This document shows positions 20,563-44,302 of a stretch of 64,000 nucleotides of DNA, piece by piece. The stretch's first letter is position 1. Each line of letters opens with the position of its first letter. The DNA comes from Minutocellus sp. GHC0000111 (taxonomy: Eukaryota). The position numbers were made by a program, and so were the translations under genes. The stretch spans positions 3,472,001-3,536,000 of the forward strand of contig OZ361259.1 in NCBI GenBank assembly GCA_977018835.1, read 5' to 3'. The notes beneath the pieces were generated by a model. The model had not been told where the DNA came from, did no database searches, and saw only the letters and a list, made by a program, of their open reading frames with translations.

Positions 20563-22386
20563 TCAAGGGGAAGAAAGAAGACGGAACAATTGGACGGAAA
20601 CGTAAACCGATAAAAAGAAGCATAGCAGGTGCTGCTTCCACGTTGACCATTCCAGAGCTGCGGTAAGATCGGCGATCTCGTTGGCCTGCCTCTCCTTGGT
20701 CTCCCTGTCCTCGAGGACGGTGAGGACCCACTGAAATTTATCCATCCCCTTGATCGTCTTGAAAGGATCGGGAATATCCTTGAGAGCATCGTGCTTCAGG
20801 AGCTGGAGAGGTGTGATGCGTTCGGCCGGATCAAAAGCGAGAAGACCAGTGATGAGCTTGATGGAGGAAGGGGAGTACTTCTTCTTCTTGAGCGCGGCCT
20901 CGACGCTTTCCAGGTTGAAGCCATTGGTCAACTCCGCGCGCTCCTCGTACAGCTCGACGAGACTGTCCATGGGAAGCGACAGGAAGAGAGCGCTCACTCC
21001 GGTGGACCACCAATCTGAAGGACATGGGTTATATTTTCCTCCCGCATGAACCTCCGGAGCCATGGTATAATCCGTTCCGCACGAGGTTCTGGCAGTCGAC
21101 TGACCTGTGGCACAGCCAAAGTCGAACATGAAGTACCACTTGTCCCCGCTGACGAATTCAATAACCCCCAAGTTCTCTGGCTTGAGGTCACGACGGGCTG
21201 TCTCCCTGACATTCAGGTAGCCCAGACAGGCCCCGACGTGGGAAAGGATGGTAAGGACCGTCTCCTCGGGCTGATCGTGTACTTCACCGAGAGGACCGCC
21301 GTTGACGACCTCCATCATCATGATGGTGAAATATTCGTTAACGTGGGTGACTTCAACGTCTGGAAAGAGTGGAAAAGACGACAAGGACTTGGCACTTTCA
21401 ATCTCGTCCTTGGCAAAGGACAGGAGAACGGGAGTGGAAGTATCAAAAACCTTGAATACTACGATCTCTTCCACGCCAAGGTCGTTGACACGTTTGGCGA
21501 GGAAGACTTTGCCGAACGATCCCTCGCCAATCTTTCGAAGGATCTTGACCTTCTCCTTCAGGCCGGCAGTACCTTTGGCACCGGAGAATGCTTGCGTGTA
21601 CTGAAACACCATGTTCTCGGCGACTTGGCGGACAGGAGAGCCCAGGTTCTCAAACGCTTGCTTGCCGGCGGCTGCCAAGATTGTCCCCAAGGCGAGATGA
21701 TACTTCGACACGAGGAAGCTACTTGGGGCGGGCAGGCACTTCTTCTTCTTCTTCTTCCTCCTTGTCGGATCGGGCGTGGCATCCTTGTTGCGGGCATCGA
21801 TGACGCTACGAGTGATGGGGCGGTCGGCGGACACGCCGAGGGCACTTGCGACACCGTCGAGGTTATGGAAGTTGTGATCCTCAAGAGATTTCTCAAGGTT
21901 TTCCCAGAGCGAATCGAACATGGCTACCAGAGTGGGGTGGAAAGCGAAGAGGCACTCACGAACGCAGCCCTGATGGACATGCACAACGGCCAACTGAGCC
22001 AGAAGATTGAGCTTCGCGTTGTCAACCTCGATGACGAATTCACTTCCTGGCTGATGAATATTGTGGTTGAGCTGTCGCTGAAGGAATTGCTGGAAAAACT
22101 CGCGAGGGAAATCCACTGGCTTGCCAGCTGCGAGGCCGGCGGCGGGGCCATTGTGGGTTTTTTCGAGGCCGGTTCCAGGAATTACGATGGGGGATTGCTT
22201 GGTGTTTGCATCTCCGGCTCCGATCTTTCCGCCGTTCACACTCGGCGGGCATTGTGCTGTCATCACGCCTTTCAAAATGCGGAGCATGTCTTCGAACTGA
22301 GCATCGTCATCGTCGGCGGTAGCCTTCTTGTCGATTGCCAAGTCGCCATCACGTAGGGACTTTTCGTCGTCGTTGCGGGAAGACAT
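20563..22386 (-). CDS. Ser/Thr protein kinase with ~280-aa uncharacterised N-terminal domain
   Basis: Motifs IGEGSFGKV, VVFK, DEIE, RRDLKPEN, DFG, CGTDYTMAPE, SDWWSTG and FDPAERIT. Likely start is ATG 22386 (MSSRNDDEK). Confidence 0.88.
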   Translation of the reverse strand: MSSRNDDEKSLRDGDLAIDKKATADDDDAQFEDMLRILKGVMTAQCPPSVNGGKIGAGDANTKQSPIVIPGTGLEKTHNGPAAGLAAGKPVDFPREFFQQFLQRQLNHNIHQPGSEFVIEVDNAKLNLLAQLAVVHVHQGCVRECLFAFHPTLVAMFDSLWENLEKSLEDHNFHNLDGVASALGVSADRPITRSVIDARNKDATPDPTRRKKKKKKCLPAPSSFLVSKYHLALGTILAAAGKQAFENLGSPVRQVAENMVFQYTQAFSGAKGTAGLKEKVKILRKIGEGSFGKVFLAKRVNDLGVEEIVVFKVFDTSTPVLLSFAKDEIESAKSLSSFPLFPDVEVTHVNEYFTIMMMEVVNGGPLGEVHDQPEETVLTILSHVGACLGYLNVRETARRDLKPENLGVIEFVSGDKWYFMFDFGCATGQSTARTSCGTDYTMAPEVHAGGKYNPCPSDWWSTGVSALFLSLPMDSLVELYEERAELTNGFNLESVEAALKKKKYSPSSIKLITGLLAFDPAERITPLQLLKHDALKDIPDPFKTIKGMDKFQWVLTVLEDRETKERQANEIADLTAALEWSTWKQHLLCFFLSVYVSVQLFRLLSSP

Positions 22387-23182
22387 ATTAGAATATCTGC
22401 GCAAAGTTTTTTGTGTTGGAATAATAGAGTGAGAATAATATGCATGTGAGTGAGTTTTGAATTGAATCGTATCAAATGTAAGCGAGGCAGAGCAGAGAGC
22501 GAGGGAGAGAGAGCTGGACTTATGGCAGCTGGGACAAACGATGGCTCCAGAGTGCATTCAACCAGGCAGAACGGACACAACACAACACGACGACACGACG
22601 GCGCACGACGGCATCGGCCAGTGCACAAAGTAGCGACGTTCCGAAGCAATACCGGTACTGGTACATGCAGATCAAACAAATGCCGAACCATCCAAAACAA
22701 AAACGAGCACAGTAATCAATAAAAATCGGCCGCCGACTCGATTCGGCGTATTGCAGTATCGCCCGACGCCGACGCCCCCAGCCCATACGCAGCATCGATC
22801 GAACGATAACAACGACGACGGTGATGGACAAATAAATTATGTGCCGCTTTTTTGTGCCGGCAAATAGGAGACGAGGCAGACAAAACAGGGCAATCAACCC
22901 ATGAACGTACCTGATGGAATTTCGTATGAATTTCGTATGATACACTGCGAGAGCCGCCGACCCCACCGCCATCCTCCGGCCCACCTCCGGCCCACCAAAA
23001 ATGGCGGCAGCCAGGCATTTTCGGCGGGGGCCGGCGGCATTTTTGGCACATTTTTGTCTCGGCCGGCAATCGCTACACTTTGAGTCGGACGAGTCGATAA
23101 TACTATACGCTTCTCGACTGCTAGAGAGCCAATTTTCATGTATTATTCCGCCGATTGGCTGCTGCTGCACAAACCCAACGCC

Positions 23183-26120: not shown

Positions 26121-26611
26121 AATACCGGTAGTAGTATCACTTGCAGCAGATGCCGCCGCTGCACCGCTACCGGAATGCAGAGCCGAACTCGGAACGCAGC
26201 CAGTGTTCGTTCTCATTTTTTTAGAAGTGCAAATTTATGAATTACGTAGCTAACGGCGAGTGGTGTTATTGTGGTGAGTACCTGGAACTGGAACCAAGCC
26301 AAGTCAGGAGCAGCTGTGGAGCTACGAGTATCGGTCGGGTATCTTGCAAATAAAAAACAGCACAAGACGTGCTAATTTACTTGCCATTGTGAGTCGAGTG
26401 AGTCATTCCAATTTCTATTTCGTACGTATGTGCGTACATGTACGTGCAATTGCCCTCATTCTTATCTTGCTTGCTCATGCCACCACCGCTGGGCGGCCCA
26501 TTCCTTCCTCTCGTTGTATTCCCTTGCCTTGCTTGCTACTTAGGCGTGTTTGCTACTTATTGCCCGATTCTTTCCGCGACGTCGCATAGTACTGTAGAGC
26601 AGCAGAGCACC

Positions 26612-29600
26612 ATGAGCAGCACCACCAGCACCGGTGACGACGACACTGTAGTTCCCACCACCCCCCGCGGCCTGTTCGATGCCGTGGTGGCCCTCGTCCG
26701 TTGCGGCGGTGGTGGCGATACCGACGAAAGCACTGACGACACAGGCAGTGGTGCCAAGCTGCCCGACTCGGTCCGGCTTCGCATGTACGGTCTGTACAAG
26801 CGCTGCACCGTCGGGAGGCTCCATCCTCACGAATACGACGATGACGATGGCGATAATGACGAAGATGACAACGAGCAGCACGACGAGCACAACCAGCGGC
26901 CCACCTGCCGGCCGTCCGTGTTCCACGTGGTGGCGTGCGCCAAGTACGATGCCTGGGCCAGCTGCGATGTCTACACCCTGAACGAGGCGCGGATGGAATA
27001 CGTCAAGTTGGCCGCCGCGCAGACTCATCATCCCGTCGGACGTCGGTGCCGGGATTTGCTCCAGAGGTTTGAGGAGGGGCAGCGACGGCAACGTATGGAG
27101 GAGGAAGAGGGACGAGGTGGTGCCGGTGGTGCAAGTGGTGAAGGCGGTGAAGGAGATGACGATCATACCGCCGTCACGGCCGAGGAGACATTTCAGGATG
27201 CCCTCGAGCATTTGCCGCCGGCGGCAGCTCTGTCGTCCCCTTCTACTCCATCGCCGCCTCGGTCTCAATCTCGATCTCAGTTCCAACATCGGCCTGCTCC
27301 GACCATGACGTCGAGGCCACGAAACGAACAACATCGTCCATTTGATCAGATACCACCATCATCATCGTCCTCCTCCACCTCATGCTCCCTCCTCGAGCGG
27401 TGGACGGGCATCCGACCGCTCATCCCCCGGGGACGGTTGGACGTTGGCCTTGGCGATTTGGGATATGCCACCCTCACGTGTCTGTGGATGATGACGTGCA
27501 ACGTCCTGCTTCCGTCTGGGTCGTATTATGCACGGACCGACGTGCGGAGAAGATACGAGGAGGACATTGCCCGGGCGTGGTGGTGTGGGACAGGTGTAGA
27601 GGATGTATCGAATGATGCGGGTGACGATGTAGCAAATGATACCACAAACGATGCATCGACTTATGACGAGGTGGTCGTCGGATTGTCGGTCCGATCCCTC
27701 CTCGATGCCTACCTGACCGGACGGAACTTTCCCTCGGGATCCGAAATCGTTCTGGCACCCTGCATAACCATACCGGGCATGGTCCAGGTGCTGCAGCATC
27801 ATGGCATACGCGTCGTTCCCGTGGACATAGTGCCTCCTCCGTGTGGTAGTGGTAGTGATGACAATGCGGAGGATGATGCAAACGATGGAAGTGGCGAGAT
27901 TGGTCGCATTGGGGTGAACGTCGACGCCGTGGAGAGGGCGATAACGCCTCGGACGGTGGCCGTTCTCGTCACCCATCCATTTGGATTGGTCTGCACTACC
28001 GACGAGGACATGACGGCCATCCGATCGTTGGCCAACCGTCATGATTTGGACGTCATTGAGGACTGTGCCGAATGCTATGCGGGAAGAAGAAGCAGTGGCC
28101 GCGGTCAGCGGCGGCAGGACACATTGGCGCATTCCGGTGAAGGCAGTGAGGCCGACATCTGTTTTTATTCCTTTGGGACCATCAAAACAGCGACGGCTCT
28201 CGGCGGTGGTATTGCCATCGTCCGCAGGGACAAGGAGGGCCTTGCCGATCAAATGAGGCGGGCGCAGCTCTTTAGCGGCCAGCAAACCAATGCACAGTAC
28301 CTTGCCAAGCTCATCAAATGCTTGGTCCTTCAATTCGTGTCGTTCTATCCGTCTCTGTGTGGGATTGTTGCATTTGTGATGAGAACATTTGGCTTGGATT
28401 ACGACCGGACGGTAACGAGCATGCTGAGGGGATTTCAGCAGCGCGATCTAATCGGCCAAATCCGAAAGAGACCTTGCACGGCGCTTCTTTCGCTTCTTCA
28501 TCGGAGGCTTTCTTATTCGTCCGCCTCGACCACTGCCTCGGTGGTATCGGCCCGGGTGAGAAGGTGTCAATCGCTATCTCGGCAACTTGTCAAATCATGC
28601 AGCCACAGTGTTCGTGTACCGAGGGGCGTCGAGGGGAGTCGTCATTGCTATTGGCTTTTTCCTGTCCACGTTGACGACCCAAACAGAATGAGCAAGCTCC
28701 TTGAGCGTGAGGGATTCGATGCACCAAGCGGCGCCTCGCAGCTGACGAGTGCAACGATGCTCGATGGTGTCCACGGAGATTGTCCCATGGCGGAACGGCT
28801 GATGAAAGGAATTATCTATCTGCAAGCTCCGAGTTATCCTCTGTCCAAGTCGCTTGTCCATCGGATTGTGAGAGTGTTGCGTTGCGATAACGAGGCAAGA
28901 GAAGGCACTTCCAAGGCTCGCGCGCAGATGATGAAGGAGAATCGCCTACATTTCGCCATCAGAAATGCTTTTCTTCTTCTTGGTATCGGATCTGTTGCCG
29001 CGCTTTGGGTTTGGCCCTTTAGTTCGATCCGAGGTGCATTGGAATCAGTATTGTGGGGCGCTTTTGGATGTGGAATGATTGTTTTGGTTCTACGATACTT
29101 TATCTCGCAGGACTACATGCAACTTTCCACAGCCATGAGCAAGCATTCGGTCGACGATATCGGTAGCTGCGAAGGTCCCGGGTGCAGCGCTCAGAATGGT
29201 TGTGCGCTAGATGCTGCTGCCCTGAAAGTTCCGTCCGTTGAGACAACAGACCCGGACGATCTTGTTCTGCTGACGGGAGCGACTGGTTTTATAGGATCGC
29301 TGCTTCTTCGTGAGCTTCTCTTGCATCGTGAGAAATTGGGCGTTGCCGGCGTCGTCGTTTTGTGTCGATCAAAGGGGTCTCGATCACCTCAAGATAGGAT
29401 GGCAAAGGTTCTGTCGGAAGATATGTTTTCATTCCTCTCCGACAAAGAGAAAGATGATCTCGTCTTGGTCATCGAGGGTGATGTCACTCAACCTGATGTT
29501 GGAATGTCACGTCAGGATTTGCTACGAGTGAAGAACGAGCTTGGCATATCCCGTGTATTTCATTGCGCTGCTTCGGTGAGCTTCACCCAGAGTCTTGAAG

Positions 29601-32600
29601 ATGCAGCAGCATCCAACATTACATCTTCCCTTCAGCTCCAGCAGTTGACGAAGCAGCTCAAGAGGAAAGATGCCAAGTTTGTGTACATCAGCACAGCGTT
29701 TGTTCATGGTGGATCAACCGGCACAGGAGATTCGCCTCTTCCCGAACAGGTCCATCGCATGCATCCGTATGATCCTCAGGCTCTGTATCGATCGATGTTG
29801 GAGACCCAATCCTACGCCTCCGCCGCTATGCATGATCTGGGTTTTCCCAACACGTACACCTTCAGCAAATGCATCTGCGAGCACTTGCTCCTCCGAGATG
29901 CGAACAGCGATACCATCATCATCCGTCCAAGTATTGTCGGTCCTGCGGTACAAGAACCTCGAGAGGGTTGGGCAGGTTCCAAACCATCGACGCTTGTGGC
30001 GGCTGCTTGCCTATACCTCAAATTTCCATACAATCTTTGGAGCTTCGGCAAGACGACTGTGCCCTTCGTTCCTGTCGATGTCGTGTGCAGATTTGTATTG
30101 TCAAAAGCTTTTGAATCTTTAGAGAAAGAGGAGGACGAGCGTTCCAGCCACCATTTGGCGAGATCGGATAGCGTTGCTGGTTCGAGATCGATCTCTTCCG
30201 CTTCTACAGAAGATGGAAGCTACCAGAAGGTCAATCTTCCGACATGTGATGATATCTCGTCCACTTCATCGCCCTCCTCTTCGGATGCCTCCATTTCGAG
30301 CAGTGCAAGCCGAAACAGTCGCACTACCAAACGCATCTTCACCGCATGCTGGGATAGCAAGTCCCAGGCTTCAGCTTCGTTCCTTTGGATCGATTATGCC
30401 ATCACCATTACCCACGTTGGAGTCATTTTTGGATACATGTCCCGCCTGGTTGTGTACATTGGGATGGTATTTACCGTCAAATTGTTTCCTCGGCTCAACC
30501 TGAAGCTCGGCACTTATCGCGACGTTCATAGTGCCGTCATTATTTCTCCGATTGTCTTCCTTCGAGGCTTCTTGGAGAAGCTTGGGATCGGAAGTCCAAT
30601 CACTCGCAATCTTCGTCTGCTGCAACCATTCCTTGATCTTCCTCTCTTGTTCTTCCCCTTTACGAACAAGTCCTTTTACTTTCGCAGCGAAATTGATGCC
30701 CCTCCTGGCTTCGATGGGCAGCGATACATGCTCAACTGTGCCTTGGCAGCAGAGCAATTTGTGAGGAAAATTGGGACCAAGAATAAGGTCAAGCCAGGAT
30801 CCTCTGTGGATGGTAGGAACCAGGCGGGTACAAGGCCGCGTTCGCACTTGGTCATCGCGGGTGCCTCTCACCGGCCGATATTGCTCGATTTACTGTGGGC
30901 CCTTTCCCAGCCTCATGGCAACACCTTCGTTCGCCTCGCAGGGTGGCTCCTGGTCAAGATTTTTCGCATAACGCTGGAGGAATTGACTGTTGACATTAGC
31001 AAAGTCGTTTGTCTCGCCAAGGCAAAGAAGGAAGCGGGGCATCCTTGTCACATCATTCTGGCCCCGACACATCGATCGTTATACGACTTTCTCATAATCA
31101 GTTTCGTCGCCTTCGCTTTGCCCGAGCTTGGACTCGATATCCCCTACATTGCAGCCGCCGAGGACTTTTATCGCGTACCTCTCTTGGGCTGGTTAATGCA
31201 GTATGCCGGCGCCTTCTTTGTGAGACGAGGTCGTGGTACGGTCGACCCTGAACTACGAAATGCTGTCAAAATCATCAAAGACGGAGGAGCGGTTATGAAT
31301 CGTTGTTCTGATGACAGTTTGTCGTCCATTGAAGTATTTATCGAGGGGACTCGTAGTAGGGACCGTCGCTTCTCAAAAGGAAAGACTGGTTTTATTCGCT
31401 GTTTGCAAGAGACGGGAGGAGACCACGTAATTCTTCCAATTGCCATAAACTATGAAGCGATTCCAGATCAGACATCTCTGTCGCAGAATGCCGAGGGGGG
31501 CATATCGAGGTTGAGGTCAGGTCTACGCGTTCAGTCTTTGTGGAAATGGCTCTGGGACGTCGCATGTGGCCGCATTCGCCTAGGACGAGTGCACGTTGCC
31601 GCTGCCAAGCCAATCCTACTCGCCGACGGTGATGAAACAAGCCCCAGCACTATCGCACTAACTATCCAGAGGGAACAGATGAAGCAAATCTTGATATCAA
31701 GCTACCACATCGAGGCAGCTTCGAGAGCCTTGTGCTTGGAGCATAAGACTGTGCGAGGCGCCATTGAAAATCTTGGTGGCCAATTCTGGCCGCCGTACGA
31801 TATCCAGACCCCTCTTCCCAGCGATAGGCACCACGGCAACGTGCCAATCTCAAGAAACAGGAATGAGCTACTTACGGTGATGCTCCATTTCGGCCACCTG
31901 CTTGCTCCCCTCGTCAAATCAACGCACCCGCGGTGGAGTGAGTGGCTTGGCCATCATTTGATGGACGAAGAAAGCAGCTTTGATAACTGGACTGTGGAAA
32001 TGTCTGCAGTGAAAAGTGCCTTGGCGAGGCTATTTGATACGGCCGATGCCGCTGTCAATGCGGTTCTAAAGAATTTGAACGATCATGGTTTTGATTCTCC
32101 GTCGGAACAACATGCATTGAGATATGTCAAGGAGCAGGCCAGGGGGGATTCCTCCTCAACTCCTCTACTGCTTCTCAAAGCTGCATTATCCTTCCAAATT
32201 GCCGCAAAGCGCCCAAGCGTTGGTAGCGACTTTGATTTGCCAGACGATGGTCCTGTCACACCCTTGTTTTCGCCGAATTCACCTAGCAACCATTCATCTT
32301 TCAATGGGATCGGTTCTTCGGAGTCTTTTGGTGCTTGGGGATATCAGGATTCCGGATTTGTCGCAGAAGTGCGAGAGGATGGTTCCAGATCTGTTGTGAT
32401 GAAGGGCAATCGCTACAAGATTTGCAATGTGGCGCTACCTAGACTTATTCCTTTTCTTGAGAAAGAGAGTCAGCTACGCGTCGATATCCGCCGAGTCTCA
32501 TTGTCCCCAGCTCTTCACAAACCAAAAGTTGCCGATTCTGCTTTACGAAGTGGTGATGTAGACAAAATGCTTGAGATTGTGGGTGGCGATCAAGGCCGGG

Positions 32601-34096
32601 TATCGATCGAGGCAAAGGACCGGGCGCGTCATGGCACTGGCCACACCCAAGAAGATATGTACTTGATTCGTAGTGGTTCGCTGGAGCAATTGCGCCTACC
32701 AGATGCTGTGATTTGGGTCAACAGTGAACGAGAAGTCGAAGGGCTCGTGGCCCTTGCCAGAGCGGAGCAATGGTGCCTCATACCATTTGGTGGTGGCACC
32801 AACGTCTCACATGCAACTCACTGTCCGACCCTCGAGCAAGAGCCAAGGCCGATTGTATCCGTCGATATGAAACTGATGAATCAAGTACTATGGATCGACG
32901 AGACCAATGGGCTTGCGCATGTTCAAGCTGGTATTACTGGTGCCGACCTTGCTCTTCAGATGAACAAGCGTGGGTACACCATCGGACATGAACCTGATAG
33001 CATTGAATTCAGTACTCTTGGAGGTTGGATTGCCACAAAGGCAAGCGGAATGAAGCGCAACAAGTACGGCAACATTGAAGATATTGTTCGTGATGTTCGT
33101 GTGGTGGGATCCGTGGGTCGTATTTCCCAAAGCGTTGATCACGGCGACCCAACTTTTGGCCGCGTGTCCACCGGCATGGATGTCTCTTCGCTGATGTTTG
33201 GATCGGAGGGAAACTGTGGCATGATTACCAGCGCTGTCATCAACATCTGGCCTCTTCCCGAAATCACCACCCATGACGGCATTGTCTTCGCCTCGTTTGA
33301 AGATGGCCTTCGATTTGTGCGAGACGTTGCTTCATCATCGACCAAGCCGGCCAGCGTCCGACTGCTGGACAACGATCAATTCCGTCTTGGCCAGGTGCTA
33401 CGAAAGGAATCCACCGGCCTTGCAGGTATTGCAGAACATCTCATGAAGATGATCGCTACTTGGACAAATGCATTCCCCGCCGACAAGGCCGTGTGCGCCA
33501 CCATTGCTTACGAGTGTTCAGCAGACGAAGTCAAGTACCAACAGAAGCAAATGGGTAAACTTGCCTCGAAGTACGGTGGTGTCTCGAAAGGGGCAAAAAT
33601 TGGTCGAGCGGGTTACGACCTGACATTTGCTATTGCCTACCTTCGAGACTTTGCCATGTCATACCACTTCCTTGCCGAATCCTTTGAAACATTCGTCCCA
33701 TGGTCCAGAGTAGAGGAGGTCATTGCCCGGACGAAGAGGCGAATCATCCAAGAACACCGTAAGCGTTTCTTGCCAGGTGAGCCGATTGTCAGCAGTAGAG
33801 TGACGCAGCTCTACGATAATGGTGCCTGCGTCTATTTCTATTTTTGCATGAATTACGAAGGCATCTCAGAACCAAGTCGAGTATATGGAGAAATCGAGGC
33901 AGCGGCGAGAGATGAGATTTTACTCTGTGGCGGATCTCTTAGTCACCATCATGGAGTTGGCAAGCTACGAGCCCATTTCATGCCTCGCATTACTTCCGAT
34001 CATCATCGGCGTTCTCTCCTCGACGTGAAGAAAAGTATCGACCCCCACGACGTTTTTGCCGTGCGGAATGGAATGTTTGCGTCGATTGAGAAGTAG
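26612..34096 (+). CDS. Multifunctional ether-lipid synthase fusion: ACBP - DegT/StrS aminotransferase - TM - fatty acyl-CoA reductase - DHAP acyltransferase - alkyl-DHAP synthase
   Basis: Uninterrupted ORF (upstream in-frame ATG at 26438; 26612 is the likelier start). ACBP: MYGLYKRCTVG...AKYDAW...EYVKL. PLP enzyme: VIEDCAE, SFGTIKTATALGGG. FAR: LLTGATGFIG, HCAASVSF, NTYTFSK, IIRPSIVG. Acyltransferase: THRSLYD, AFFVRR, FIEGTRSR. AGPS: PFGGGTNVS, HEPDSIEFSTLGGWIATKASGMKRNKYGNIED, SHHHGVGK. Confidence 0.93.
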   Translation: MSSTTSTGDDDTVVPTTPRGLFDAVVALVRCGGGGDTDESTDDTGSGAKLPDSVRLRMYGLYKRCTVGRLHPHEYDDDDGDNDEDDNEQHDEHNQRPTCRPSVFHVVACAKYDAWASCDVYTLNEARMEYVKLAAAQTHHPVGRRCRDLLQRFEEGQRRQRMEEEEGRGGAGGASGEGGEGDDDHTAVTAEETFQDALEHLPPAAALSSPSTPSPPRSQSRSQFQHRPAPTMTSRPRNEQHRPFDQIPPSSSSSSTSCSLLERWTGIRPLIPRGRLDVGLGDLGYATLTCLWMMTCNVLLPSGSYYARTDVRRRYEEDIARAWWCGTGVEDVSNDAGDDVANDTTNDASTYDEVVVGLSVRSLLDAYLTGRNFPSGSEIVLAPCITIPGMVQVLQHHGIRVVPVDIVPPPCGSGSDDNAEDDANDGSGEIGRIGVNVDAVERAITPRTVAVLVTHPFGLVCTTDEDMTAIRSLANRHDLDVIEDCAECYAGRRSSGRGQRRQDTLAHSGEGSEADICFYSFGTIKTATALGGGIAIVRRDKEGLADQMRRAQLFSGQQTNAQYLAKLIKCLVLQFVSFYPSLCGIVAFVMRTFGLDYDRTVTSMLRGFQQRDLIGQIRKRPCTALLSLLHRRLSYSSASTTASVVSARVRRCQSLSRQLVKSCSHSVRVPRGVEGSRHCYWLFPVHVDDPNRMSKLLEREGFDAPSGASQLTSATMLDGVHGDCPMAERLMKGIIYLQAPSYPLSKSLVHRIVRVLRCDNEAREGTSKARAQMMKENRLHFAIRNAFLLLGIGSVAALWVWPFSSIRGALESVLWGAFGCGMIVLVLRYFISQDYMQLSTAMSKHSVDDIGSCEGPGCSAQNGCALDAAALKVPSVETTDPDDLVLLTGATGFIGSLLLRELLLHREKLGVAGVVVLCRSKGSRSPQDRMAKVLSEDMFSFLSDKEKDDLVLVIEGDVTQPDVGMSRQDLLRVKNELGISRVFHCAASVSFTQSLEDAAASNITSSLQLQQLTKQLKRKDAKFVYISTAFVHGGSTGTGDSPLPEQVHRMHPYDPQALYRSMLETQSYASAAMHDLGFPNTYTFSKCICEHLLLRDANSDTIIIRPSIVGPAVQEPREGWAGSKPSTLVAAACLYLKFPYNLWSFGKTTVPFVPVDVVCRFVLSKAFESLEKEEDERSSHHLARSDSVAGSRSISSASTEDGSYQKVNLPTCDDISSTSSPSSSDASISSSASRNSRTTKRIFTACWDSKSQASASFLWIDYAITITHVGVIFGYMSRLVVYIGMVFTVKLFPRLNLKLGTYRDVHSAVIISPIVFLRGFLEKLGIGSPITRNLRLLQPFLDLPLLFFPFTNKSFYFRSEIDAPPGFDGQRYMLNCALAAEQFVRKIGTKNKVKPGSSVDGRNQAGTRPRSHLVIAGASHRPILLDLLWALSQPHGNTFVRLAGWLLVKIFRITLEELTVDISKVVCLAKAKKEAGHPCHIILAPTHRSLYDFLIISFVAFALPELGLDIPYIAAAEDFYRVPLLGWLMQYAGAFFVRRGRGTVDPELRNAVKIIKDGGAVMNRCSDDSLSSIEVFIEGTRSRDRRFSKGKTGFIRCLQETGGDHVILPIAINYEAIPDQTSLSQNAEGGISRLRSGLRVQSLWKWLWDVACGRIRLGRVHVAAAKPILLADGDETSPSTIALTIQREQMKQILISSYHIEAASRALCLEHKTVRGAIENLGGQFWPPYDIQTPLPSDRHHGNVPISRNRNELLTVMLHFGHLLAPLVKSTHPRWSEWLGHHLMDEESSFDNWTVEMSAVKSALARLFDTADAAVNAVLKNLNDHGFDSPSEQHALRYVKEQARGDSSSTPLLLLKAALSFQIAAKRPSVGSDFDLPDDGPVTPLFSPNSPSNHSSFNGIGSSESFGAWGYQDSGFVAEVREDGSRSVVMKGNRYKICNVALPRLIPFLEKESQLRVDIRRVSLSPALHKPKVADSALRSGDVDKMLEIVGGDQGRVSIEAKDRARHGTGHTQEDMYLIRSGSLEQLRLPDAVIWVNSEREVEGLVALARAEQWCLIPFGGGTNVSHATHCPTLEQEPRPIVSVDMKLMNQVLWIDETNGLAHVQAGITGADLALQMNKRGYTIGHEPDSIEFSTLGGWIATKASGMKRNKYGNIEDIVRDVRVVGSVGRISQSVDHGDPTFGRVSTGMDVSSLMFGSEGNCGMITSAVINIWPLPEITTHDGIVFASFEDGLRFVRDVASSSTKPASVRLLDNDQFRLGQVLRKESTGLAGIAEHLMKMIATWTNAFPADKAVCATIAYECSADEVKYQQKQMGKLASKYGGVSKGAKIGRAGYDLTFAIAYLRDFAMSYHFLAESFETFVPWSRVEEVIARTKRRIIQEHRKRFLPGEPIVSSRVTQLYDNGACVYFYFCMNYEGISEPSRVYGEIEAAARDEILLCGGSLSHHHGVGKLRAHFMPRITSDHHRRSLLDVKKSIDPHDVFAVRNGMFASIEK

Positions 34097-34324: not shown

Positions 34325-35400
34325 TCATTCTTCAGGTACCGAGGCGAGACTCTTGATGTCGATCCAACGTGTGAGCGAGTTGGTCTTTGGATTGCACTGC
34401 TTCCGTTCATTCTTCTGGAGACGATCGACCTCTCTTGGGAAGGACTCCCAGTCGCAGTATATAAGATCACTGCATCCAAACAAGAGTGCACAGAATTCCT
34501 TTACCTCTCGTCGACAGAATGGCCGTTCGTCGAGGAGGTCGAAGTACCGGCAGTCCTGTCCCATCTCTCGCATACGATGGAGAGGTCGCGCGTAGGTAAG
34601 CCACGGATTATGTTCAAAGACTTCCTCTGCCTCGCTTATGTGATCGTCCAGCACATCGATGTCCAGCCAATCCAGTCGTTTGTCCAATTCGTTATAGAAC
34701 GTCAGTGTTGGTTGCCAGTCGGTGCATAGCCTGATAACGACGCAGACTGGCAGACCTCGAAGAGAGTCCAGCGCCGCGACGAGATCTTCTTGGCGTTCTT
34801 CTTCTTGGATCTCAATACCGCAGTTGTGCTTGTTGGTGTTCTGTCCATCCGTCGCGATGACGATGCAGACCTTGCTTCCCTCTTCTTCAAGAGTGGGCAA
34901 CATGTCAATGATATCTCGACGAACTTCTCGGATACTGTCAGGTAAGGGTGTTCTGCCAGATGGCTCATTTCGTAGCATAATGTTCCGGGCTCGCTTGCGA
35001 TCCTTCGATGCCTGAGAGGGTGTATTGAGGCCATACCCTACGCGGAACCGATGTGGACCCCGAACGAGTGGACCGCCATTCTTGGGTGGATTGAGGAGAC
35101 GGAATTCGCTGGGGGCCCCAAGTGACGAGGCGAGATGGATGTGACTTTCCACAGTTTCGCTAATCTCATCCCACCTCGAGCACTCCTCATTTCCATTGTC
35201 ATTTGAAGTCAGCAGACAGTGACCGTCGTCAAGAGACGTCGAGCCAGAATTGTCAACTATCCAAAATCGTTTATGGATGGCACTTTGCGTATTGGCCATC
35301 AGCGTTTGCCTCAGGCCCGAAGGAATATCAATGCCCAAAGATTCCACCGAGCAAGTGTCGCTCTCCCGAAGGACCTCGGATTTGATAGCCTGATACAAGC
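34325..35400 (-). CDS. vWA-domain protein (stramenopile-type); 5' end uncertain
   Basis: MIDAS-like WIVDNSGS, GRTPL and VIATDG, then LPVCVVIRLCTD...DVLDD..EAEEV..HNPWLTY..PLHRMREMG. Confidence 0.75.
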
Positions 35401-35525
35401 CTCCCCTGGCGTGGGTACTCCTTCGTGCTACCGGTGGAATTACATGTCGAGCATATCCTTCCACGCACCCCGTCCCCAACCAGGCGTCGCCTGTTCTTCC
35501 TGCCACGGGGCTCCAGGCTGCGGAT

Positions 35526-36761
35526 GTGAACGATCGAGCTGCACAGCGACGGAGGGAAGCCCAGGAGAAGGATGCGGAGAGGGCCCGAGTTTGGATTCGA
35601 GACAAGCGCGAGCGAGAAAATGCGGACGACCCTTTCGTCGCGTCAAGACTGCTTCTGCAGCAGCAGCAGGAATGGCAGGAGCAAGCTCAGAAGCAAGCTC
35701 AGGAGAAAAACAGGGAGGAACAAAGAGTCTATAGGCGGAAGCAGCGAGAGAGAGAGAAGGTGGCAAATGCCGAAGCGAAAGAAAAGGCTCGAAAGCTCGA
35801 GGAGCAGCAACGACGAGATGGGGTGGTGGAAATCCAGCCGATGGACTTCCATCCTCTGTACCATCCCCAGGGGCGGGATACCGGGAACGAGGACATGCTG
35901 TTCCTCGGCGCATCGTTTACCGACATTCGGGACGTGGCTCGCACAGAGTGCAAGCTTCCCTGGGACGTTGCCAGTGCACTTCAGAAGACCATTGCGATTC
36001 GCGAGATTGCCGACCTCGTCAACACCACGAACATGGAAATGGTCCACGCCAGGGACACCGCGAGGGCGGTGGCTCTGGAGAGGATGGCGAAAGCCAACGT
36101 ATACACGTGCAACGACTTTTACACCTCGCAGAGCTGGCTTCGGAAGGATCGGCACGTGGCGGGTGATTGGAATCAGTCCTCCGACCGGGGCGTGGCGTGC
36201 AAGATGAAGAGGATGGCGATTCGTTTCGGAAAGGTGTTTATGGATTACATCTACCTTCCTGGGTCCTCGTACACCACCTTGCGGTATGCCAAGGAGGGAT
36301 TCTTCAAGTTCACGCTCCCCGCCATCCAAGATCGGCTCATGCACAAGAGGACGAACAACGGGAGGCTGCCGGCCATATTTTTGCCCGCTACGAAGCACAT
36401 TTTGGCCAGTCTCTGTTGCATCGTCGATATAAAGGCCGACACGCACTTCTCTTATACCCTGATGAACGAGGAGCAGGCGAGACAGGAACACCTGCTGTAC
36501 AAGGCCACGATCGAGATGGATGTTAGTGACGTTGAGTATCGCGATTTGTTTGGCAAGGTCAAGACCGAATTGCAACGGTGCGAATACGACACTGACTTCA
36601 AGGGGATGCTCAAGAAGAACAACCTCGGAAAATCGAGACTAGAACAAATTTGTGGATGTTCGGACGAAAATCAATTGAAGAAAGCTGTGAATGGGGCCAA
36701 CTTTATCAAGATTGAACGGCTGAGTTATGCATCCGAAGATGGCAGCGTTGTAACACTCTAG
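35526..36761 (+). CDS. Uncharacterised protein: N-terminal coiled coil + alpha/beta domain (possibly methyltransferase-like); start uncertain
   Basis: 411-aa frame open from 35394 with the first ATG only at 35841. Motifs MLFLGASF, RDTARA, VYTCN, DRHV, FGKVFMDYIYLP and IFLP. Confidence 0.55.
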   Translation: MNDRAAQRRREAQEKDAERARVWIRDKRERENADDPFVASRLLLQQQQEWQEQAQKQAQEKNREEQRVYRRKQREREKVANAEAKEKARKLEEQQRRDGVVEIQPMDFHPLYHPQGRDTGNEDMLFLGASFTDIRDVARTECKLPWDVASALQKTIAIREIADLVNTTNMEMVHARDTARAVALERMAKANVYTCNDFYTSQSWLRKDRHVAGDWNQSSDRGVACKMKRMAIRFGKVFMDYIYLPGSSYTTLRYAKEGFFKFTLPAIQDRLMHKRTNNGRLPAIFLPATKHILASLCCIVDIKADTHFSYTLMNEEQARQEHLLYKATIEMDVSDVEYRDLFGKVKTELQRCEYDTDFKGMLKKNNLGKSRLEQICGCSDENQLKKAVNGANFIKIERLSYASEDGSVVTL

Positions 36762-37023: not shown

Positions 37024-39782
37024 TTAAAAGTTCGACAAAACAGCCTCATTTGATACAGCATCCTTGTCACTTTGACTGATGCTCTCAAAAGAATAATCCT
37101 TTCCACCCTTGAGCAAAAGCTTGACGTCATGATGCCGCATTAACGTTGGACGATGGCCCACAGATACGTACGTAATTGGCATTCCAGCTTGTCGTTGTTC
37201 TTCGGCCAGATTCTTCAGTAACGCAAAGACCTTGTTCTCAGAAGCAACATCAAGAGCACTTGTGCTTTCATCCATCATGACAACCCGAGGCCTGTTCACC
37301 AAGATACGTGCAAAAGCCAGTCGCTGCTGCTCGCCGAGGGACAAAATGTTCGACCAATCAGCCACTACGTCAAGGCCTCGCACGGGATCGCCCTTGCCCA
37401 TTCTGACCGCAGTATCAGCCAGATCTACCTGCTCCAATATCGCCAATAATCTAGAACTCGACATATTCTGCCGCAAGACATGAGTTTGGCTCAATCTGTG
37501 TCCATCGGGATAATCATCGGGGGAAAGGTCGCCAGTCGACGGATACAGAAGCTGATCTCGCAACGACCCAAGCGGACAATATGGATTTTGTGGCAAGAAC
37601 CAGGTCTCCAAATCAGCTGGTCTTTCGATAATACCATCACCCGACGTCCACAGACCCGCGATCGCACGCAAGAGGGAGCTCTTGCCCACCCCGCTTGGAC
37701 CGGCAATCAAAAGGTGTTGGCCCCATTTTACCGAAAAGCTAACGTCCTTGAACAAACGCCTTTGGTGATCAGGTGTTCTAAGAGACACACCCTGCAACGA
37801 AAGCGCCACATCTTTCCCGGGAAATGAGCCATTGATTTGTTCTGATCGAAGCGGCTGCTGTCGCAAATCAATTGTATCGATCCGTCTACTCGCTTCGTTC
37901 TTACGGGTAAACAAGAAGCCACGGTCGTTGGATCCGGGGGGTAACATCATAAGGGGTGCATCACCATCGCGCTCTGGATCAGCAGTCTTGATCGCCGAAA
38001 TAAATTGATAAAGACGCTCGATGCCAGCGCTGAATTCAGCAAGGTCGGTGAACGAATTGATAATAAGACTCAGGTCGTCCAGGACATGGCTAAATGCACT
38101 ACTGGATTGCGTCACCACGCTGGATGAAACGAAATCGAAGGCGGAAGGGAAATGTGAGAGCAGTCGGCCAACTGACAACAACAAATACGCAAGTCGGCCA
38201 ACTGACAACAACCAATAGGCAATTTTATTTACTCTTACTCACCCCATGGCAATGTTTCCAGCGAAATACTCGGGCGCAACCACGACAATTGGTAGGATCC
38301 ACGTAAAGTAGGAATAAGACGTCGTGAAGAGATCCAAATTCCTTTGGGCGACATTGACCTCTCTCATATTTCCAATGACAGAATTGAAGCGATGTCCCAC
38401 CTCCTTCTCCTCTATGTCTTCACCGTTATAGAATGCGATATTCTCCGCGTTATCACGGATCTGTTTTCAACACGTATGATGATAGCAAAGGGTATGAGTA
38501 TAAGTATGAGTACATCACACGTGCTCGAAAGAAGCAATCACACAAATATAGGCGCCTATAGGAATCACAATGCCTTGCATGGTACTCACCCGGACCAACG
38601 AATAGCGGAAATCGGCCTCACGCTGCAGCTTCTCATAGTTCAGACGTATCAATTTCTTGCCAATTTTATATGTCGCGACGGTTCTGTTTCCAACACGAGT
38701 GGTGATAACAAAGGGTATGAGTATGAGTACATCACACGTGCTCGAAAGAAGCAATCACACAAATATAGGAATCATATATATATGCAAAAACCAATGTCTT
38801 GCATGGTACTCACCCGACGGTGGCATATCCAAAAATAGCAATAAACAGCTGTGCTCGGATGGTTGCAAGAATGATGGAAAAGCTGACGAGGTCGATGGTC
38901 GATGTGACAATGTTCAAAAACAGGTTCAAGGACTGATTGGTGAAGGTTCGAACGTCCTCGGCAATTCGTTGATCTGGATTGTCAATCTCCCGCCCTCGTT
39001 CAAGCGTATAATACACTCGATTCGAGTAGTACAGATTCATCGTTCGTCCGGTCATCCAATCTCTCCATTTGATGCTCAACCTCTAGAAAATGCGATAGCA
39101 CCAGAGCAAGTGAATGCAATCGAACCAATAGAATGGTGAGAAAAAAAGATGAAGAAGATATTTGGTTGCGATGGATCGAATACATTGGAGTAGGGCGTAC
39201 ATATTTGAATCAATTGAACACATACCGATGCCTGGAACCTGTAAAAGACTGCAATGGGCGTCATGGCCAATAAAGCCAACATGAATTGAATGATAACCTC
39301 ATAAAATTTTTCTTGGTCCTTTTCTTCCAATGCATTGTAAAAATCTCTCACCAGGTAACTGAACACGACACGAACTCCGCTGTTCATCAGTGTGAGCACA
39401 ACGAGGATGTAAAATGTACAGCGCCCATCCTTACTTTCGCAGAAATATGGTGCCGCCATTGTCTTGAAGGCGATAAACTGATCACGAAGTGGGCGTTTCC
39501 CACTAGTCATGTAATTGCCTCCTCCATTGTTCTCCGCGGTGCCGTTCTGGTTGGTGCCGCTTCCCTTGGAGCCGATGCCGAGCAGGGTGCTCTCCCCCCC
39601 GGCCTCAATGTCACGCCTGGCGTCGTTGAATGCATCGGTCTGCAGACGTCAAAAGAGACATAGTTTGTTCCGCCACCATCCGCCGCATGCGCGGCCGAGC
39701 TCGATTCCATCTTATGGTCAGCGCCAAGCAATGCCTTGACCTGGACGTCGTCCTTCTTGGCCGGCCTCGACCTGCTGGCCAT
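37024..39782 (-). CDS. ABC transporter subfamily D half-transporter (ABCD4/plant ABCD2/YddA-like)
   Basis: Exons 39782-39226 (1-nt slip near 39648), 39082-38814, 38683-38590, 38460-38243 and 38119-37024 splice in frame with GT-AG. Motifs IDNPDQRIAED, EADFRYSLVRIRDNAE, Walker A GPSGVGKSS, LSLGEQQRL, VMMDES and SVGHR. Confidence 0.92.
38461..38813 (-). repeat. Two near-identical introns (38684-38813 and 38461-38589) in the ABCD gene
   Basis: Both start GTGAGTACCATGCAAG, share TATTTGTGTGATTGCTTCTTTCGAGCACGTGTGATGTACTCATACT, and end GTGTTG(G/A)AAACAG. The flanking exons are different. Confidence 0.9.
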
Positions 39783-40229
39783 TTATTTTGTCTTTCCCGA
39801 CGACAGTAGACTCTGGCCTAGCTAGATCTAGCGAGAGTAGCTACGTAGTGAGTGTAAGTGCTTGGAAGGCGTCGGCGCGGGCGTTTGCGTTGGGCGGAGC
39901 AGCGGCGAAGGCCATGGGCACAAACGCAATGACGCGATGACCTGATGATGCGGGGTCATCAGGCCCCGCAATTTGTCGATGAAAGATTCGGCGGTCAGAC
40001 CGGCCCGATGAGACCATTTTATGGGAGTGTGTTTCTTTCGAGCGAGGCAGCAATGGCGATAGCATGCAGCAGCATACTCGTAGCAGCGGCAACAGGCAGC
40101 AGCCGACTTGCAGGTTGGTTGGAACCTACTACGAGTAGACAGCAATTGCAGGCAGCAGCAGTAATCGTCACATCGTCACATCGTCAACTACGTCTACGTC
40201 GTACCCCTCGCCGCTCGGCTATCGACTCG

Positions 40230-41372
40230 ATGAAGCAGACCGGAGAGACGGGCGCGAGCAAAAATGAGGCGTCAAGCACTAATGCTGGAGACGAGATGAA
40301 GCATTGTGCCTCATGCAACAAGTCCAGCACCACGCTCAAGAAGTGCACCGCATGCAAGTCCGTTTGGTATTGCAACGTTTCCTGCCAGAAGAACCATCGC
40401 AAGGCGCACAAAAAAGAGTGTAAGCGCATCGAGCTGGAGCTCAAGAGCGGCGCAGACAATAAACTCAAGAGCGGAGGGGGCAATGCGGGTAAGAGCACGA
40501 AGACTGATGATGACCCCGAATTGTGGAAGCCGCACCTGCCCAATGAGGATTGTCCGGTTTGCATGGTGCCGTTGCCTCTAGCTCCACACGAATCTACATA
40601 TTTGACTTGCTGCAACAAGTCTCTGTGCCGCGCGTGCATCGAAGAGCACACACGAGTCTGGAGAATCACGAACAAGAAGCGGAAGAAAAAAGAGCTGCCG
40701 CCGACTGATCCGACCTGCCCCTTCTGCAGAACACCCGCTCATAAGAGCGGCGCCGAATATCTCAGCCGTTTGGAAACTCATGTGCAAAAAGGAAGCATAA
40801 GAGCTATCATGCATAAGGCGGCCGGCTACAAAGAAGGGAAGTGGGGCCTGCCGCAGAACATACCCAAATCATTGGAGCTCTACCGTTGTGCCGCTGATTT
40901 GGGCAACGCAGATGCGATGAGTTACATTGGGCTATTGCATGAACGTGGTGATGGAGGTTTTGTCAAAAATGTAGGTGAAGGTAGACAGCACATGAAGACT
41001 GCTGCTATAATGGGAAGTGTGATGGCGCGTCATAACCTCGCCTGTCTTGAGGCGAGTGAACGAAACTTTGACCTCGCTGTCAAGCACTTTCGGCTTGCAG
41101 CCGAGGCAGGTTTAGAACTCTCGGTACAAAACCTTTGGAAATTCTTCTATCGGGGTAAAGTGAGCAAAGAGGAACTCGAAGAAGCGCTAAGACTCCACCA
41201 GGAAGCTTGTGAAGAAATGGATAGCGAGGAGCGAAAAAGAATGTCAGCCTATCATGAAGCCATAGCTAGTGACGATGAGGTGCTACAAAAAATATATGGA
41301 AGCTATTATGCAGGTACGATAAATGGAAAAGGGCTCAAGATGGCCCTGGCGATCCAAAAAGATGGGCAGTGA
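40230..41372 (+). CDS. MYND zinc finger + RING-like + Sel1-repeat protein
   Basis: CASC...KKCTACKSVWYCNVSCQKNHRKAHKKEC (MYND); CPVC...CCNKSLCRAC...CPFCR (RING-like); AADLGNADAM, AAIMGSVMARHNLA and AAEAG (Sel1). Confidence 0.9.
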   Translation: MKQTGETGASKNEASSTNAGDEMKHCASCNKSSTTLKKCTACKSVWYCNVSCQKNHRKAHKKECKRIELELKSGADNKLKSGGGNAGKSTKTDDDPELWKPHLPNEDCPVCMVPLPLAPHESTYLTCCNKSLCRACIEEHTRVWRITNKKRKKKELPPTDPTCPFCRTPAHKSGAEYLSRLETHVQKGSIRAIMHKAAGYKEGKWGLPQNIPKSLELYRCAADLGNADAMSYIGLLHERGDGGFVKNVGEGRQHMKTAAIMGSVMARHNLACLEASERNFDLAVKHFRLAAEAGLELSVQNLWKFFYRGKVSKEELEEALRLHQEACEEMDSEERKRMSAYHEAIASDDEVLQKIYGSYYAGTINGKGLKMALAIQKDGQ

Positions 41373-43462: not shown

Positions 43463-44302
43463 ATGGCGACCCTAACAGCGCCGCTCCGCTCCATCGCGGT
43501 GGCACTTCTTGTGCTTCTTCTCTCACCATTATCTTGCAATGCCTTTCAGCAATGTCCCTCCCGAGTTTTGAGCCGATCGGTACCGTCGGTCAGGCCAACA
43601 CATGCCGCGAAAACGAGCGTATCTTGCGCCCTCTTTGCATCTTCCACCTCCTCCTCCGAGTCGGGAGGAGGGCCACGGAACAAGCCCGACAAGCTCATCG
43701 AGACGACGGCCTACACCCTCCGCCGCACCTCGTGGTTTAGTTGGTGGTCCCAGATCATACTCACGACTATCTCCGCTGTGATCCTGCTTTTTGCTCGAAG
43801 CGTCGGACTGGCGGCAATCGAAGCGTCCAGCCCGGGCGGCGCGGCCAGGAATCAGGCCTCGGCCAGCTTCTTCATCGGCGGGGTGGGCATTGCCATCAGC
43901 TTCGCCAGCATCTTCTGGACGTGGGGCGGTGCGCGGCTGTCGAACCGACTGTTGCGCGGCAAGACCAGCAGAATACAAGCGGCCAATTTGCTTAGGCGCG
44001 CCGTAACGGTGGCATCGGCGCTGAACTTGAGCGGCATGCTCGTGACGCTCCTTGGCACGTTCGTGATCATCGGCTCACTGGCCACCAAGGTGCTCACCGC
44101 GGGCGGTCTAAGTCCCTTTGGTGCCATGGCCGCCGGCGGCATCGGTGGTGGATCCGTTGCTCTCCAGACCGTCCAGCCTCTGGACATATTGATCGTCCAG
44201 GCAAACGCCAATACCCTCCTCTCGCACTTCGTTAGCTTGTTCTTGAGTTTGTTCCTCACCAGATATGTCAAGCGGTTGGATCCGCCCTCTACCGAGGATT
44301 GA
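43463..44302 (+). CDS. Plastid TIC21/PIC1-like (DUF3611) membrane protein
   Basis: Bipartite presequence (signal ending SCNA-F, then Ser-rich transit). Motifs WFSWWSQIILTTISAVILLF and LDILIVQANANTLLSHF; four hydrophobic helices. Confidence 0.85.
   Translation: MATLTAPLRSIAVALLVLLLSPLSCNAFQQCPSRVLSRSVPSVRPTHAAKTSVSCALFASSTSSSESGGGPRNKPDKLIETTAYTLRRTSWFSWWSQIILTTISAVILLFARSVGLAAIEASSPGGAARNQASASFFIGGVGIAISFASIFWTWGGARLSNRLLRGKTSRIQAANLLRRAVTVASALNLSGMLVTLLGTFVIIGSLATKVLTAGGLSPFGAMAAGGIGGGSVALQTVQPLDILIVQANANTLLSHFVSLFLSLFLTRYVKRLDPPSTED

Follow-up and report, generated by a model that had tools for sequence, protein, structure and literature searches.

A predicted ether-lipid multienzyme in a single open reading frame

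The window analyzed here is a stretch of 64,000 nucleotides from Minutocellus sp. GHC0000111 (GenBank assembly GCA_977018835.1, contig OZ361259.1, positions 3,472,001 to 3,536,000), and window coordinates are used throughout. On its + strand lies one open reading frame (ORF) whose product joins an acyl-CoA-binding domain, a pyridoxal phosphate (PLP) domain, a hydrophobic anchor, a fatty acyl-CoA reductase (FAR), an acyltransferase (AT), and an alkyl-dihydroxyacetone phosphate (alkyl-DHAP) synthase (AGPS). The stop-free frame spans 26402 to 34096 and encodes 2,494 aa when counted from the ATG at 26612; the longest open frame in 300 shuffles of the region had a mean of 162 aa and a maximum of 250 aa. 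Pfam matches above the gathering cut-offs were obtained, in order, for ACBP (residues 98-133), DegT_DnrJ_EryC1 (435-563), NAD_binding_4 (887-1161), Acyltransferase (1481-1612), FAD_binding_4 (2030-2171), and FAD-oxidase_C (2223-2482). An earlier note, made from the DNA letters alone, had described a single ORF of about 2,500 aa with its domains in this order, and the Pfam run on the ORF recovered them all. The motifs named in that note also sit at the places claimed: TGATGFIG at 888, YxxSK at 1082-1086, HxxxxD (as HRSLYD) at 1487, FIEGTRSR at 1576, HEPDS at 2126, and HHH at 2445-2447. The features of the locus are the following.

26612..34096, + strand: ether-lipid multienzyme ORF, 2,494 aa (frame translation; RNA-library contigs collinear, no joints)
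26663..27031, + strand: acyl-CoA-binding domain with acidic insertions (PF00887, 32.7 bits against a cut-off of 28.3)
27410..28900, + strand: PLP domain of the DegT/DnrJ/EryC1/StrS fold, uncharacterised subfamily, with a basic amphipathic helical insert (Pfam, alignments, model)
28958..29101, + strand: hydrophobic anchor, predicted hairpin of a clear and a weaker segment (hydropathy scan)
29258..30811, + strand: fatty acyl-CoA reductase with helical C-terminal part (PF07993, E 1e-43; model; Foldseek)
30869..32221, + strand: PlsB/GNPAT-type acyltransferase with a less conserved C-terminal region (PF01553; sequence comparison)
32327..34093, + strand: alkyl-DHAP synthase (4bby match, alignment)

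The RNA evidence consists of contigs from four runs of two studies, and what follows applies to the contigs listed; the libraries may contain some DNA. Ten runs recorded as RNA contain part of the window, with a share of at least 0.8 in five of them. No splice joints were found across the ORF, in agreement with its earlier description as intronless. Contig depth was unbroken over the frame at 8-16, about 0-4 upstream, and near zero past 35.7 kb. Single pieces join the PLP domain, anchor, and FAR (27963-29397), the anchor, FAR, and the start of the acyltransferase (28929-30923), and the acyltransferase and AGPS (30977-33366). Two further in-frame ATGs, at 26438 and 26477, are probably not used, and ATG 26612 is the likely start, because those pieces of the RNA contigs that reach into the gene begin at 26514-26519 and the homologues begin with ACBP. 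The contigs carry in-frame insertions of 12 bases at 27871 and 3 bases at 32293, both in loop or linker regions, and their indels inside the fusion preserve the frame. The 17 single-base differences listed within the frame, too few for a selection test, comprise 8 synonymous changes, 9 nonsynonymous changes, and 0 stops; five of the nine nonsynonymous differences sit within 4 codons of an insertion loop. The transcript-assembly entries P0023, P0039, and P0071 of MMETSP also carry the fusion. The gene is apparently expressed.

Catalytic residues of the modules

Conservation was counted in 29 aligned full-length proteins chosen from the homologue hits described below. In the acyl-CoA-binding domain, Y59, K63, and K111 are conserved in 27 of the 29 and Y130 in 26; we take these Tyr and Lys residues to be ligand-binding positions. 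The PLP domain retains its Asp (D484) and Schiff-base Lys (K525) in all 28 aligned fusion proteins that have the domain, and its mean identity is 38%, compared with 15-20% for the linkers. Its best solved matches are sugar aminotransferases (E 4e-8). Two transmembrane helices had been claimed after this domain; segment 809-827 passes a 19-residue hydropathy scan, and the second (about 783-802) falls below the threshold. At least one passing segment occurs in 27/29 proteins and two in 10/29.

The FAR module has the Rossmann motif TGATGFIG, S1027-T1028, Y1082, and K1086, with the catalytic Tyr and Lys present in 29/29. A model of FAR plus acyltransferase (predicted local distance difference test score, pLDDT, 86) gave as best Foldseek match the rice fatty acyl reductase DPW (7eoz, E 2e-16), and GPAT1 was also matched. 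The acyltransferase carries the HxxxxD motif and blocks II-III of the PlsB/GNPAT family (H1487, D1492, R1539, E1578-G1579, and R1581; H/D/E/G/R in 29/29), and aligned with human GPAT1 at 59.7 bits (E 2e-15). AGPS was the strongest match of the protein: 581 residues aligned with guinea-pig AGPS (4bby) at 458 bits and E 4e-136, the next family reaching E 2e-19. In the 4bby alignment, from which the numbering is taken, H2126, R2250, Y2408, and H2445-2447 correspond to the catalytic residues H300, R419, Y578, and H615-617; the equivalents of H300 and R419 are found in 29/29 proteins and those of Y578 and HHH in 28/29.

None of the 25 NCBIfam families shown reaches its cut-off for the window protein, and the best equivalog of DegT/DnrJ/EryC1/StrS gave 32 bits against cut-offs of 375-650. 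A canonical type 1 peroxisomal targeting signal (PTS1) was present at the C-terminus of 0/29 full-length proteins, and a PTS2-like pattern in 2/29. The missing PTS1 suggests that the protein probably resides on a membrane face, either of the endoplasmic reticulum or the outer peroxisomal face, rather than in the peroxisomal matrix.

The fusion is conserved in diatoms and other algae

A homologue search with residues 260-2494 as query returned 216 hits, of which the best 120 were listed. The architecture that the earlier note described, with all five modules in the same order, recurs in 60 of these, and 18 more bring to 78 those with FAR-AT-AGPS. The other 42 lack AGPS; 41 of them stop short within the acyltransferase profile, where two break positions recur, a pattern suggestive of gene callers stopping at introns. 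Members among the listed hits include Thalassiosira, Cyclotella, Discostella, Cyclostephanos, Skeletonema, Chaetoceros, Nitzschia, Seminavis, Fistulifera, and Triparma. The dinoflagellate Effrenium voratum has PLP-FAR-AT-AGPS, the prasinophytes Pycnococcus and Pseudoscourfieldia have anchor-FAR-AT-AGPS, and a rough gene model of Phaeothamnion gives ACBP-FAR-AT-AGPS. The fusion is not a one-off: it recurs throughout the sampled groups of diatoms, and some other algae have it as well. Reference gene models of Phaeodactylum, Fragilariopsis, and Pseudo-nitzschia give AGPS alone, and members are labeled in databases only as 'alkylglycerone-phosphate synthase' or 'hypothetical'.

In an AGPS tree the window protein falls inside the diatom clade (SH-aLRT 98), beside P0002 and Chaetoceros. 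This tree came from a quick search and was made without other eukaryotic AGPS, and therefore places the window among diatoms but shows no donor. In a tree of the PLP domain, diatoms, Effrenium, and two others form one clade (97), with Triparma elsewhere on a long branch. The fusion is real and conserved; it presents a known pathway in a new architecture, in which one catalytic module is unexplained and may define a new lipid.

Bacterial kin of the FAR-AT-AGPS core

A FAR-AT search of 1.84 billion representatives gave 5,734 hits, the best 150 of which were listed. Among the matches listed, the best after the algal proteins fall into dozens of clusters of FAR-AT proteins of about 780-950 aa, and the nearest non-fused kin are bacterial proteins of about 890 aa. 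One FAR-AT protein, P0311, matches 41/225 genomes of a bacterial class assigned to Myxococcota, since some of its members also count in the phylum to which a Polyangiales genome belongs. An AGPS gene adjoins FAR-AT in 11 of the 12 full-length loci fetched, and in 7 of 9 FAR-only loci; an NAD-dependent epimerase/reductase gene follows in 5 of 10 FAR-AT/AGPS loci. The layout of the nearest loci (AGPS, FAR-AT, epimerase) matches that reported for MXAN_1676-1675-1674 of M. xanthus (PMC9131029). The window AGPS scored 553 bits against the bacterial operon AGPS versus 458 against the guinea-pig enzyme, and the window acyltransferase 170 bits against the bacterial FAR-AT versus 60 against human GPAT1. 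This adjacency and these higher scores support a DHAP acyltransferase working with AGPS. They also suggest, without proving, a bacterial source of the FAR-AT-AGPS core. No full FAR-AT relative was found in plasmid sequences.

Comparison with known systems

FARAT is the FAR-GNPAT fusion of Tetrahymena, Amoebozoa, Discoba, and Filasterea (PMC13012113). As described there, a GNPAT/PlsB-type acyltransferase comes directly after FAR in a single chain, and the protein is akin to Myxococcota proteins. The diatom protein shares these features and differs in adding AGPS, a membrane anchor, ACBP, and the PLP domain and in having no PTS1. In its available portions, this 2026 survey states that within Diaphoretickes only ciliates have FARAT, and it found no FAR or GNPAT in ochrophytes. 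Its main text, as far as available, mentions no diatoms, and 'Ochrophyta' appears only in the PEDS1/FAD4 and AGPS tables, where the rows shown for diatom AGPS list models of 554-564 aa starting MKG[NT]RY, a site internal to the fusion; PF01041 and PF00887 are absent from the portions of the supplements available (PMC13012113). The survey, to judge from these portions, missed the fusion, its diatom AGPS entries being short gene models, and the algal fusion proteins contradict the statement on ciliates. No published description of the fusion was found in the literature searched, outside which most subscription papers lie, and nothing on it appeared in the available portions of PMC9244630, PMC11225845, PMC12387633, PMC9609662, and PMC2444003.

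The earlier note had named ciliate FARAT and myxobacterial ElbD as partial fusions; the closest known systems are FARAT and the M. xanthus operon, not ElbD (PMC9131029, PMC13012113). In the accounts given there, MXAN_1676 (AGPS), MXAN_1675 (FAR-AT), and MXAN_1674 (NAD epimerase) provide the same three activities from separate genes, with AGPS first and a reductase-type third gene, whereas the diatom chain has AGPS last and an aminotransferase instead (PMC9131029). The third gene of this operon may reduce the C2 ketone of alkyl-DHAP. ElbD (FAR-ACS-ACP-acyltransferase, ACP being acyl carrier protein) is likewise a multidomain ether-lipid protein with FAR and an acyltransferase, but as described has no AGPS or PLP domain and uses ACP and a ligase (PMC9131029). 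The animal proteins FAR1, GNPAT, and AGPS share the AGPS fold and catalytic residues and the predicted first three steps; they are separate peroxisomal proteins, and their product is reduced, not aminated as proposed for the diatom protein.

The PLP domain and its bacterial subfamily

A search for the subfamily of the PLP domain gave 256 hits, with the best 120 listed. The domain belongs to a bacterial subfamily in which the Asp and Lys are invariant (37/37 aligned sequences), marked by an IKTATALGG motif, about 65 unaligned residues, and lipid-gene neighbours; no characterised member was found. A model of the bacterial member P0126 (pLDDT 89), whose alignment included the window domain, has the ArnB fold (Z 32.1, root-mean-square deviation 2.9, 329 of 404 residues aligned), and basic amphipathic helices at 207-263 in the model could touch the membrane. 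The fold is that of ArnB and perosamine synthase, that is, of ketone transaminases, and the PLP residues are as in ArnB. The diatom domain differs from the DegT/DnrJ/EryC1/StrS sugar aminotransferases as a distinct subfamily whose neighbours are lipid genes or unrelated. An Atlas search with P0126 returned only DegT-named clusters, and the 35 loci found on viral contigs were all distant (22-38% identity, mostly partial).

The subfamily is carried by 16 of a sample of 401 Myxococcota genomes, and in 13 of the 16 a PlsC-type acyltransferase gene abuts the PLP gene on the same strand (4 upstream, 9 downstream; three subclades). Eight of these 13 neighbours seeded the search profile and five were found by it. 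Because the partner family occurs in 1-3 copies in 130/401 genomes, the adjacency is not chance, although kinship among the genomes reduces the number of independent cases. The unit is likely to be an amino-lipid pathway. It pairs the DegT-subfamily aminotransferase with a PlsC-type acyltransferase having a long insertion, and both gene orders were seen (L189:6977-9339, L191, L192, L193, L195-L202, and L076:6892-9083). The two are fused in 4 of the 120 listed hits (P0191, P0212, P0213, and P0215), one with an ACP hit in between, and an aminotransferase-(ACP)-PlsC fusion also lies at L012:2046-3939. In the PLP tree, P0215 groups with a Mariniphaga locus in which aminotransferase and PlsC are adjacent genes.

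Of an estimated 4,800 or so PLP loci in GTDB, 80 were examined. A glycerol-3-phosphate oxidase gene abuts the PLP gene in four by Pfam and in two more by clustering; PlsY is a neighbour in one, an AGPS-like gene in one, and acyltransferases in three. FAD-linked oxidases near the PLP gene were adjacent on the same strand in five, on the opposite strand in one, and fused in one. The AGPS-like gene is part of an Opitutaceae lipid cluster (L035:1234-12978), where it overlaps the aminotransferase start; the cluster also holds thioester reductase, ACP-acyltransferase, HAD-like, acyl-AMP ligase-like, and ketosynthase-like genes, several of these names being read from motifs. At six alphaproteobacterial loci (L043, L045, L051, L055, L064, and L070) the aminotransferase gene lies beside a gene of the Asp/Asn beta-hydroxylase family, Pfam-confirmed in three, and a class III aminotransferase is present in three. 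An ancestral bacterial operon of the PLP gene with AGPS-FARAT was not found in the loci and genomes examined.

A proposed route to an amino ether lipid

The FAR, DHAP acyltransferase, and AGPS families have an established chemistry leading to 1-O-alkyl-DHAP. In the proposed route, ACBP would hold acyl-CoA, the acyltransferase would make acyl-DHAP, FAR would reduce a second acyl-CoA to the fatty alcohol using NADPH, and AGPS would exchange acyl for alkyl. Judged by the enzyme families, it is highly probable that these four modules together yield 1-O-alkyl-DHAP. The AGPS match and residues, the match of the FAR model to DPW, and the FAR-AT kin beside AGPS make an alkyl-DHAP-forming protein well supported at the level of sequence. 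The ether-lipid synthase of the earlier note holds to this extent, and the channelling that it proposed stays a hypothesis; the note gave the aminotransferase no role, yet this conserved domain is probably what determines the final product.

The PLP domain would then aminate the C2 ketone left by AGPS, giving 1-O-alkyl-2-amino-2-deoxyglycero-3-phosphate (alkyl-serinol-phosphate), and this step would replace the reductase used here by animals and, apparently, by the myxobacterial operon. Transamination is taken as the likeliest last step because the diatom chain has a ketone-aminating PLP domain of a lipid-associated subfamily and no such reductase; given alkyl-DHAP formation, we consider it slightly more probable than its contrary. 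Our reading of the whole, held tentatively and a little short of an even chance, is that the conserved five-module polypeptide is a membrane-anchored ether-lipid synthase that makes alkyl-DHAP and then likely aminates it. The serinolipids of didemnid tunicates are alkyl ethers of serinol. Serinolipids as such are reported from these animals (PMC5315671, PMC6627775). As a precedent for the amination, PLP-dependent conversion of DHAP to serinol phosphate is reported for RtxA, whose N-terminal domain is likened to the diatom domain by reaction, not by sequence (PMC3222319).

A broader proposal, which we regard with more doubt, is that a single enzyme of diatoms, bolidophytes, and some dinoflagellates makes 1-O-alkyl-serinol-phosphate, which together with its N-acyl derivatives would be an ether-linked mimic of sphingoid lipids. 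The C16 form (C19H41NO2) is isomeric with d19:0 sphinganine and could therefore hide in lipidomics among odd-chain long-chain bases or ceramides. If amination occurs, the members of the PLP subfamily would be the first aminotransferases for lipid ketones, Myxococcota would have a parallel amino-lipid route, and the product would be a new class of membrane or signalling lipid, making algae a possible source of marine alkyl-ether and serinol lipids and this reaction a candidate for the chemistry behind marine serinolipids. Diatoms, which account for a large part of ocean carbon fixation, are not known to make ether lipids. A gene that is conserved, apparently expressed, and equipped with the three committed enzymes redraws the ether-lipid map, the fusion having been hidden by split gene models, and a one-gene route to alkyl-DHAP would be a compact tool for ether-lipid engineering.

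Several observations weigh against amination of alkyl-DHAP, or against the synthase as a whole. The fusions of Pycnococcus and the Phaeothamnion model have no PLP domain. In bacteria, the neighbours in most of the 80 PLP loci are unrelated, AGPS or FARAT lies near the PLP gene in 0/19 Myxococcota loci, and in the class with the AGPS-FARAT operon PLP occurs in 8/225 genomes and FAR in 41/225, with only one genome (G004) having both, unlinked. The AGPS-PLP pair of the Opitutaceae cluster is the sole hit in the 301 genomes of its order (that of G001), and its AGPS-like protein is only 28% identical. The PlsC-type partner family in Myxococcota mostly occurs without the PLP gene and differs from the family of the fusion's acyltransferase. 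The FAR C-terminal Pfam domain PF03015 was not detected in the window protein; it reaches only E 0.04-0.19, in two bacterial relatives, and in the model a confident helical domain fills the corresponding position. With only one membrane pass, the PLP domain and AGPS would lie on opposite sides, and two clear segments are found in only 10/29 proteins. Among the RNA contigs listed from the four runs, none covers the whole frame from 26612 to 34096. No published 1-O-alkyl or serinol lipid from diatoms was found in the literature searched, which leaves out most subscription papers.

Amination of alkyl-DHAP ranks ahead of a route in which alkyl-DHAP is made and a separate reductase gives 1-O-alkyl-glycerol-3-phosphate (plasmanyl lipids and alkylglycerols), the PLP domain having a side, regulatory, or unrelated role. 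That route is the less probable of the two, yet a serious contender: it is known in animals, ciliates, and myxobacteria (PMC13012113 and PMC9131029, in the portions available), and both the algal fusions lacking the PLP domain and the missing ancestral link of the PLP gene to AGPS-FARAT favour it. This route fits poorly with the retention of its Asp and Lys in every aligned domain, with its identity above that of the linkers, and with the repeated ties of its bacterial relatives to glycerolipid acyltransferases. The domain might also act on another carbonyl, converting the fatty aldehyde to a long-chain amine, converting DHAP or acyl-DHAP to serinol or acyl-serinol lipids in a parallel branch, or running in reverse to recycle an amino lipid. 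Routes to fatty amines by a reductase plus an aminotransferase exist, and the bacterial partners are more often acyltransferases and glycerol-3-phosphate oxidases than AGPS, which fits a DHAP or acyl-DHAP substrate. We nevertheless consider these alternatives unlikely, since the substrates of the DegT-family enzymes with solved structures that matched are ring ketones, those of sugars and cyclitols. AGPS moreover needs the ketone of acyl-DHAP, which amination ahead of it would take away, yet AGPS is intact in every complete member.

It is very improbable that the acyltransferase is a glycerol-3-phosphate acyltransferase (GPAT) and the modules serve unrelated lipid routes without any ether lipid. 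Among solved structures, this module matches by sequence only GPAT/PlsB enzymes, the motifs do not separate GPAT from GNPAT, and the literature searched yielded no ether lipid of diatoms; the far higher score to bacterial FAR-AT proteins encoded beside AGPS than to GPAT1, and an AGPS with all its catalytic residues, argue the other way. An origin of the fusion as an artefact, by misassembly or by read-through between neighbouring genes, has a negligible probability and is largely refuted already. The hits without AGPS and the reference models with AGPS alone would be expected of an artefact, but 7.7 kb run without a stop, five-module homologues recur, the short hits break where gene callers do at introns, and the short AGPS models start at a Met internal to the fusion, within which the RNA contig indels keep the frame.

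Neighbouring genes and a paralogue

No lipid gene cluster was found among the 20 frames scanned in the window. Other neighbours encode a protein kinase (20563-22557, - strand), an ABC ATPase (37024-37950, -), a MYND-Sel1 protein (39945-41372, +), and a DUF3611 protein (43463-44302, +). The convergent neighbour of the fusion (34325-35686, -) matches nothing in Pfam; in all four runs the RNA contigs depart from it at about 45 positions and have a common loose end at 35455, which suggests an intron or a divergent allele. Another very long frame (52209-59078, -) encodes 2,289 aa, and its anoctamin domain is confined to the last 470 residues. In Seminavis robusta, the paralogue P0356 (CAB9510266.1) combines the same FAR with an acyltransferase-like domain lacking the catalytic His and a C-terminal sulfotransferase, and is a candidate maker of sulfated fatty alcohols.

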